Shown here: positions 1 through 224 of the stretch, piece by piece | Layout: the number at the start of each line of letters is the position of its first letter | How positions within the stretch are numbered: position 1 is the first letter of the stretch | DNA from: Escherichia coli | GTDB taxonomy: Bacteria; Pseudomonadota; Gammaproteobacteria; Enterobacterales; Enterobacteriaceae | Length of the DNA: 33,046 bases | Direction: 5' to 3' (one strand) | Assembly: GCF_003334815.1 (NCBI RefSeq) | Contig: NZ_QOWO01000041.1 | Program-made: the position numbers and the translations under genes | Notes under the pieces: model-generated | The model's database searches: none | The model's input: only the letters and a program-made list of their open reading frames with translations | What the model was told of the DNA's origin: nothing

Positions 1-77
1 ACCATTTGATCATATGACAAGATGTGTATCCACCTTAACTTAATGATTTTTACCAAAATCATTAGGGGATTCATCAG
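1..77 (-). mobile_element. IS10 (Tn10-type, IS4 family) outside end, partial; element body lies beyond the window start
   Basis: Reverse complement of 1-77 reads CTGATGAATCCCCTAATGATTTTGGTAAAAATCATTAAGTTAAGGTGGATACACATCTTGTCATATGATCAAATGGT, which I recognise as the IS10 outside terminus including the GATC Dam site in the pIN region. Match ends at position 77. Confidence 0.7.
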
Positions 78-191
78 GACAAAGCGGGTGTAAATTGAGG
101 GAATACAACGTATCGCAAAAAAGCAGAAACGTAACAGACTCGGAGTCAGTGAATAACTCAGGTATTGGGTTATCAGCTAATATCGAGACTC

Positions 192-224
192 AAAAAATGG
201 AAAAACCCGCTCGACGGCGGGTTT
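192..224 (-). terminator. Rho-independent terminator on - strand (candidate phage late-region terminator)
   Basis: Inverted repeat AACCCGC/GCGGGTT (204-210 with 217-223), 6-nt loop, followed on the - strand by TTTCCATTTTTT. No U-run on the + strand. Confidence 0.5.

Follow-up and report, generated by a model that had tools for sequence, protein, structure and literature searches.

A copy of the insertion sequence IS10 has in all probability transposed into the leader of the lysis cassette of a decayed prophage in this Escherichia coli genome, where it would part the lysis genes from their drivers; any effect on the expression of a neighbouring porin gene is probably small. The evidence comes from one stretch of 33,046 nucleotides, referred to here as the window, and from its comparison with related strains and phages. 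An insertion of this kind is a routine event of a well-known and already described type.

The IS10 outside end and the contig boundary

The identity of window positions 1–77, the end of the element that they represent, and their orientation are settled. The reverse complement of this segment, CTGATGAATCCCCTAATGATTTTGGTAAAAATCATTAAGTTAAGGTGGATACACATCTTGTCATATGATCAAATGGT, matches at 77 of 77 positions the transposase-proximal (outside) end of a complete IS10/ISVsa5 in E. coli WI2, so that the − strand of the window carries the terminal 77 nt of an element of the IS10R/ISVsa5 type (IS10 nt 1–77), with the IS10 terminal sequence CTGATGAATCCCCTAATGATTTT... present at the tip. The reference copy in WI2 (6661–7989 of the WI2 locus, L002) is 1329 bp long, has the 9-bp duplication TGCTAAGCA on its flanks, and is labelled "IS4-like element ISVsa5 family transposase"; ISVsa5 is IS10R (PMC10885879). 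On the + strand, positions 1–32 match the Rfam model of the IS10 antisense RNA, RNA-OUT (RF00240), over model positions 39–70 of 70 (35.2 bits, E = 5.5e-05), which corresponds to the 3′ arm and tail. The 5′ side is cut, and the score lies below the gathering score of 41 solely because the window start truncates the match; in the WI2 element the full-length match scores 98.8 bits and ends 47 nt from the IS tip. RNA-OUT has been described as being 69 nt long and as terminating at IS10 nt 47 (PMC5006887), which is window position 31. The window holds only the final 32 nt of this RNA, and its 5′ half lies outside, as does the outward promoter pOUT (approximately IS10 nt 115–150).

The 77/77 match and the 3′ part of RNA-OUT on the + strand together fix the identity and orientation of the element. 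Its body runs to the left, off the contig, its outside end faces the porin gene, and the break between IS10 and phage DNA falls exactly at 77/78, with homology to IS-free genomes from position 78 onward. An earlier note, made from the letters alone, had assigned the first 77 bp to the IS10 outside terminus on the − strand and had taken outward transcription to follow the + strand toward the porin, and both assignments are borne out by the WI2 alignment and by the position of RNA-OUT. IS10 is a 1329-bp element of the IS4 family with a DDE transposase of approximately 402 aa and with the promoters pIN and pOUT near nt 80–150. When set against IS10-Right of Tn10, also of the IS4 family, all visible features are the same, including the tip break and the place and orientation of RNA-OUT, whereas the contig does not extend to the transposase gene, to pIN and pOUT, to the inside end, or to the target duplication.

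The length of the IS10 fragment is explained by the other end of the window. Its last 77 nt (32970–33046) are an exact copy of 32762–32838, and 77 nt is the longest repeated suffix. The terminal copy lies inside the second of two tRNA-Lys(UUU) genes, and the first gene copy holds 32762–32838. An RtT element is found between the two tRNA-Lys copies (Rfam RF00391, 32873–33040). Both window ends carry exactly 77 nt of repeat, from IS10 at the start and from tRNA-Lys at the end. In de Bruijn assembly each unique edge begins and ends with the k-mer of a repeat vertex, and the exact 77-nt repeats at both ends therefore identify the window as a whole contig from a short-read assembly with k = 77. Because the contig stops at a multi-copy repeat, the figure of 77 nt is an assembly artefact without biological meaning, and the k-length overhang implies two or more contexts for the IS10 outside end in that genome. 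This assembly contains no sequence to the left of the window. A terminal repeat fragment of assembler-k length should accordingly be read as a contig boundary and not as a truncated element, and a regulatory interpretation that starts from such a fragment relies on absent sequence.

With just 77 nt of IS10 at the end of a short-read contig, the junction might be suspected of being an assembly chimera, or of belonging to a minor subpopulation without being fixed. Either is extremely unlikely: a de Bruijn edge with a full terminal k-mer requires junction-spanning reads, and a random chimera would not place its break precisely where IS10 biologically ends, as is seen here.

The insertion site and its prophage context

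From position 78 to 25000 the window is 100.0% identical (24.9 kb) to E. coli 52F4, which is IS-free at the site. The position of the holin gene essD, a homologue of lambda S, was read from the IS-free strains A14 and 52F4 and from the phage records PhiR68_2 and Lambda_4C10; its start lies 14 nt to the left of the base that corresponds to window 78, and on the late strand the empty site reads CGCTTTGTC-TGCGAGGTGGGGTT-ATG. Judged from these relatives, IS10 has entered the leader of the essD-rrrD-rzpD lysis cassette, right in front of the Shine-Dalgarno sequence of the holin gene. This nearest gene had been missed in the earlier note.

The first 9 nt of phage DNA past the IS tip, GACAAAGCG (78–86), are the presumed target site, of which one copy is visible. 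This sequence agrees with the Tn10/IS10 consensus NGCTNAGCN at four of the six specified positions and has one perfect AGC half-site, a match that is ordinary and acceptable for IS10 without being a hot spot. Were the insertion simple, the second copy of GACAAAGCG would lie past the IS10 inside end, off the contig; the reciprocal junction would read ...AACCCCACCTCGCAGACAAAGCG followed by the inside end CTGAGAGATCCCC..., and a partner contig would finish with ...CCCCACCTCGCAGACAAAGCG and, after it, 77 nt from the inside end of IS10 (CTGAGAGATCCCCTCATAATTTCC...).

Alternatively, the junction could be the edge of a larger IS10-mediated rearrangement, for instance a deletion or inversion next to the element, recombination of one IS10 copy with another, or the presence of Tn10 or another composite transposon, with the lysis genes no longer on the far side. 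The stop of the contig within a repeat and the additional genomic context implied by its exact k-length overhang would be compatible with this, as would the other deletions already present in the prophage and the occurrence of up to 45 IS10 places per genome in some strains. Against it, identity to the nearest relative is 100% from the first base past the IS tip, that relative has essD directly adjacent, and the flank starts with a plausible target with its perfect half-site, as direct transposition predicts. Simple insertion is also the commonest outcome of IS10 activity. Given the exact continuity with an IS-free relative and the plausible target site, simple insertion is favoured, and a larger rearrangement is considered unlikely.

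Two further observations concern the stretch to the right of the target. A 17-nt indel polymorphism is present in the holin leader (window 107–125 versus L002 5998–6003), with WI2 being without a GTATCGCAAAAAAGCAG-like sequence and several genomes matching only from window 126 onward; it falls between the IS10 target and a terminator-like hairpin at 203–224. A + strand ORF of 43 aa at 95–226 was dismissed as spurious, being without support and crossing that hairpin.

The frequency of IS10 in the species was determined with the same 77-mer: of 5426 complete E. coli genomes, 1876 (35%) carry it, and records of the E. coli collection that match it at an identity of at least 99% number 1968. The median was two places per genome and the maximum 45, and thousands of identical copies of the IS10 end occur in E. 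coli. The junction itself gave a different result. No record among the complete E. coli genomes covered at least 80% of a 121-nt IS10/phage junction query, and a 46-nt version had zero matches in species-representative genomes, JGI metagenome contigs, and viral contigs. The insertion site is thus private among the complete E. coli, species-representative, metagenome, and viral collections searched. Two WI2 records (H33 and H34) had seemed to cover query position 1 and were considered as the same insertion, but were rejected because their IS10 actually lies within the porin gene.

In WI2, the full IS10 is located exactly at the TGCTAAGCA site (L002 6650–7998), in the same orientation, and splits the porin gene, so a second strain shows an independent IS10 insertion in this prophage module. 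The sequence TGCTAAGCA is a perfect IS10 hot spot and also occurs in the window, at 773–781 inside the porin gene; eight other perfect IS10 consensus sites are present in the window.

Gene content and order identify the region as a decayed lambda-like prophage with a late region of the DLP12 type, located by ybhC at the attachment site of lambda. The genes int and xis adjoin ybhC, which is followed by ybhJ, mod, gal, aroG, and nadA. In the late region, the order taken from the IS-free strains A14 and 52F4 is rusA-ylcG-quuD (−), porin (+), and essD-rrrD-rzpD (−). The porin gene, of the nmpC/lc type, is an intact ORF at 651–1733 (+), with coordinates as for WP_000737275.1 in 52F4 and A14, and in relatives it is annotated "porin OmpC" or "OmpD". 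The late antiterminator gene quuD (Q) is an ORF at 1922–2305 (−), annotated as such in A14 and 52F4, and reads toward the porin and the holin. In the 100%-identical relative 52F4, ybcO and exo are both truncated and joined to each other, the terminase and tail genes are truncated as well, and genes for immunity and replication are missing (repressor, N, cro, O, and P). Their absence leaves quuD cut off from any early promoter, and because the prophage is already defective, the phage-level consequence of the IS10 insertion would be nil.

Several other features of the prophage and its surroundings were noted. The deletion junction, at approximately 2890–3160 of the window (L003 10810–11530), places the truncated ybcO (DUF1364, − strand) beside the truncated lambda exonuclease gene (+ strand). 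Two hairpins, at 1752–1782 and 1871–1888, are found between the porin stop and the Q stop. The second, GGGGCGTCTCAACGCCCC followed by ATTTTT, is a + strand terminator for the porin, and the stem of the first, GTTGCGGGAGGC/GCCTCCCCAAC, has a T-rich stretch after it on the − strand and could act on late-strand transcription. In host DNA past ybhC, a match to naRNA4, a REP-derived nucleoid-associated RNA (RF02564), was found at 8643–8713 (−), with 60.7 bits versus a gathering score of 59.5.

IS insertions in the late regions of cryptic prophages are commonplace, and the DLP12 prophage of K-12 carries IS5 in nmpC. Like that IS5 and like the IS10 in the WI2 porin gene, the element described here lies within the Q-porin-S module of a DLP12-type late region. 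Unlike in those two cases, the porin gene is intact, the element sits in the holin leader, and it is the lysis cassette that would be affected.

Transcription on the two strands of the porin-holin interval

An intrinsic-terminator-like hairpin is located at 203–224 in the long holin leader. The terminator scan recorded it on the − strand only (224 to 203), with eight pairs, five of them G-C, a loop of 6 nt, and the tail TTCCATTTTT; its U-tract reaches down to approximately 190, and the fold centroid has an energy of −12 kcal/mol. The same stem can form on the + strand (−13.6 kcal/mol), where three U are paired within the stem and no U-run follows. The earlier reading of this hairpin as terminator-like for the − strand alone is thus confirmed, and the statement that IS10 abuts it is imprecise: the hairpin lies in the same leader, upstream of IS10 in the late direction, but 125 bp separate it from the IS tip at 77, and what IS10 abuts is the essD leader.

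The hairpin is invariant in the five aligned genomes and phages, and covariation gives no support either way with the region invariant in all five. Weak Rfam matches over 104–319 (Trp_leader, STnc130, isrK, and sroH), with E values of 0.13–8 and scores far below the gathering scores, were rejected because they reflect only the terminator hairpin. The element resembles a lambda-type tR′, which is read through by Q-modified RNA polymerase, in being a G+C hairpin with a U-tract on the late strand between Q and the holin gene, and it is kept in functional phages with this module. It differs from lambda tR′ in that a porin gene of opposite orientation lies between Q and the hairpin, and any termination or Q read-through at this site is putative.

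Transcription in the other direction was the subject of the proposal that pOUT reads across the outside end into the porin leader, with a measurable rise in, or deregulation of, porin expression. Much of the underlying geometry was found to be sound. IS10 has the correct orientation, a distance of 574 bp separates the IS tip from the porin ATG at 651 (close to the 570 bp first estimated), the hairpin at 203–224 is without a U-run on the + strand, and the terminator scan returned no + strand intrinsic terminator before 1871, that is, over 1–1870. Read-out from IS10 into neighbouring genes is also documented. A review that draws on Simons et al. (1983) gives the transcription leaving IS10 as approximately 10% of that from the PlacUV reference promoter and lists the activation of acrEF by IS10 in Salmonella (PMC9330008), and the outward promoters of IS10 have been invoked for activation of cat (PMC4574204). 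As in the pOUT activation of his genes with Tn10 and of acrEF in Salmonella (Simons et al. 1983, as cited in PMC9330008), the outside end faces a gene on the right strand with no intrinsic terminator between. Unlike in those cases, the porin is 574 bp away behind an untranslated, putatively Rho-prone leader, its own promoter region is intact, and the activating promoter lies outside the window.

Other evidence argues against a measurable effect. Besides pOUT itself being outside the window, its major product ends inside IS10, at nt 47 (PMC5006887), which is window 31. The 574-nt path beyond the tip is untranslated and contains the stable G+C hairpin, followed at 235–416 (+) by a C-rich, G-poor tract with a C/G ratio of 1.6–2.67 and 6–10 G per 78-nt window. 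By composition, this tract resembles a Rho loading site and may function as one; a path of this kind, with C/G of up to 2.7, favours Rho-dependent termination. The native upstream and regulatory region of the porin (225–650) is A+T-rich (30% G+C) and identical in the IS-free strain 52F4; scattered substitutions are present in PhiR68_2 and Lambda_4C10, most columns being invariant. Porins of the nmpC type are natively expressed, and induced at 37 °C, in strains without IS10 at this place (PMC12890032). A hybrid promoter created by the IS10 junction was also considered and rejected, since a scan of 1–2055 found no promoter-like site anywhere on the + strand.

Some pOUT transcripts may leave IS10 in the direction of the porin, but most end within the element as the 69-nt RNA-OUT; with the native promoter region of the porin retained as well, any effect on the porin is probably small. 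The idea of read-through into the porin leader retains its geometry, its open path with respect to intrinsic terminators, and its precedents; a measurable change in porin expression is improbable.

Consequences for the lysis cassette

Simple insertion into the holin leader would have its main effect on the other strand. The SRRz/Rz1 genes of DLP12 form one operon governed by the Q antiterminator, RpoE, and Hha, with a regulatory fragment extending from −121 to +650 (PMC7918800), which implies a long leader. If the insertion is simple, IS10 would turn its inside end toward essD, and its transposase gene would read in that direction; a complete IS10, with essD on its far side, is assumed here from the nearest relatives. 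The 1.3-kb element would then be polar, cutting essD-rrrD-rzpD off both from late transcription that depends on Q and from the promoter upstream and its long leader, and such uncoupling of the lysis genes would be the likeliest effect of the insertion. IS10 also has outward promoters at its inside end, pIII and OUTIIp, within IS10 nt 1000–1230 (PMC11481808; PMC4574204), and, more speculatively, residual transcription of the lysis cassette could start from these, in DNA outside the window.

It could further be supposed that the insertion was selected and is not neutral, either by silencing a potentially lethal holin-endolysin cassette of the cryptic prophage or by driving the lysis genes from the inside-end promoters while pOUT adds constitutive porin transcription. 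If this were true, one IS10 would rewire two envelope-related modules. Nothing in the evidence points to selection, and this reading is highly improbable.

The transposition of IS10 into the lysis-cassette leader carries little biological weight as an event, since IS10 is among the best-studied insertion sequences and roughly one in three complete E. coli genomes carries its ends. Work on K-12 ties the lysis module of DLP12 to the production of vesicles and to envelope maintenance (PMC7918800), and the point of biological interest is whether a DLP12-type lysis module has been shut off here.
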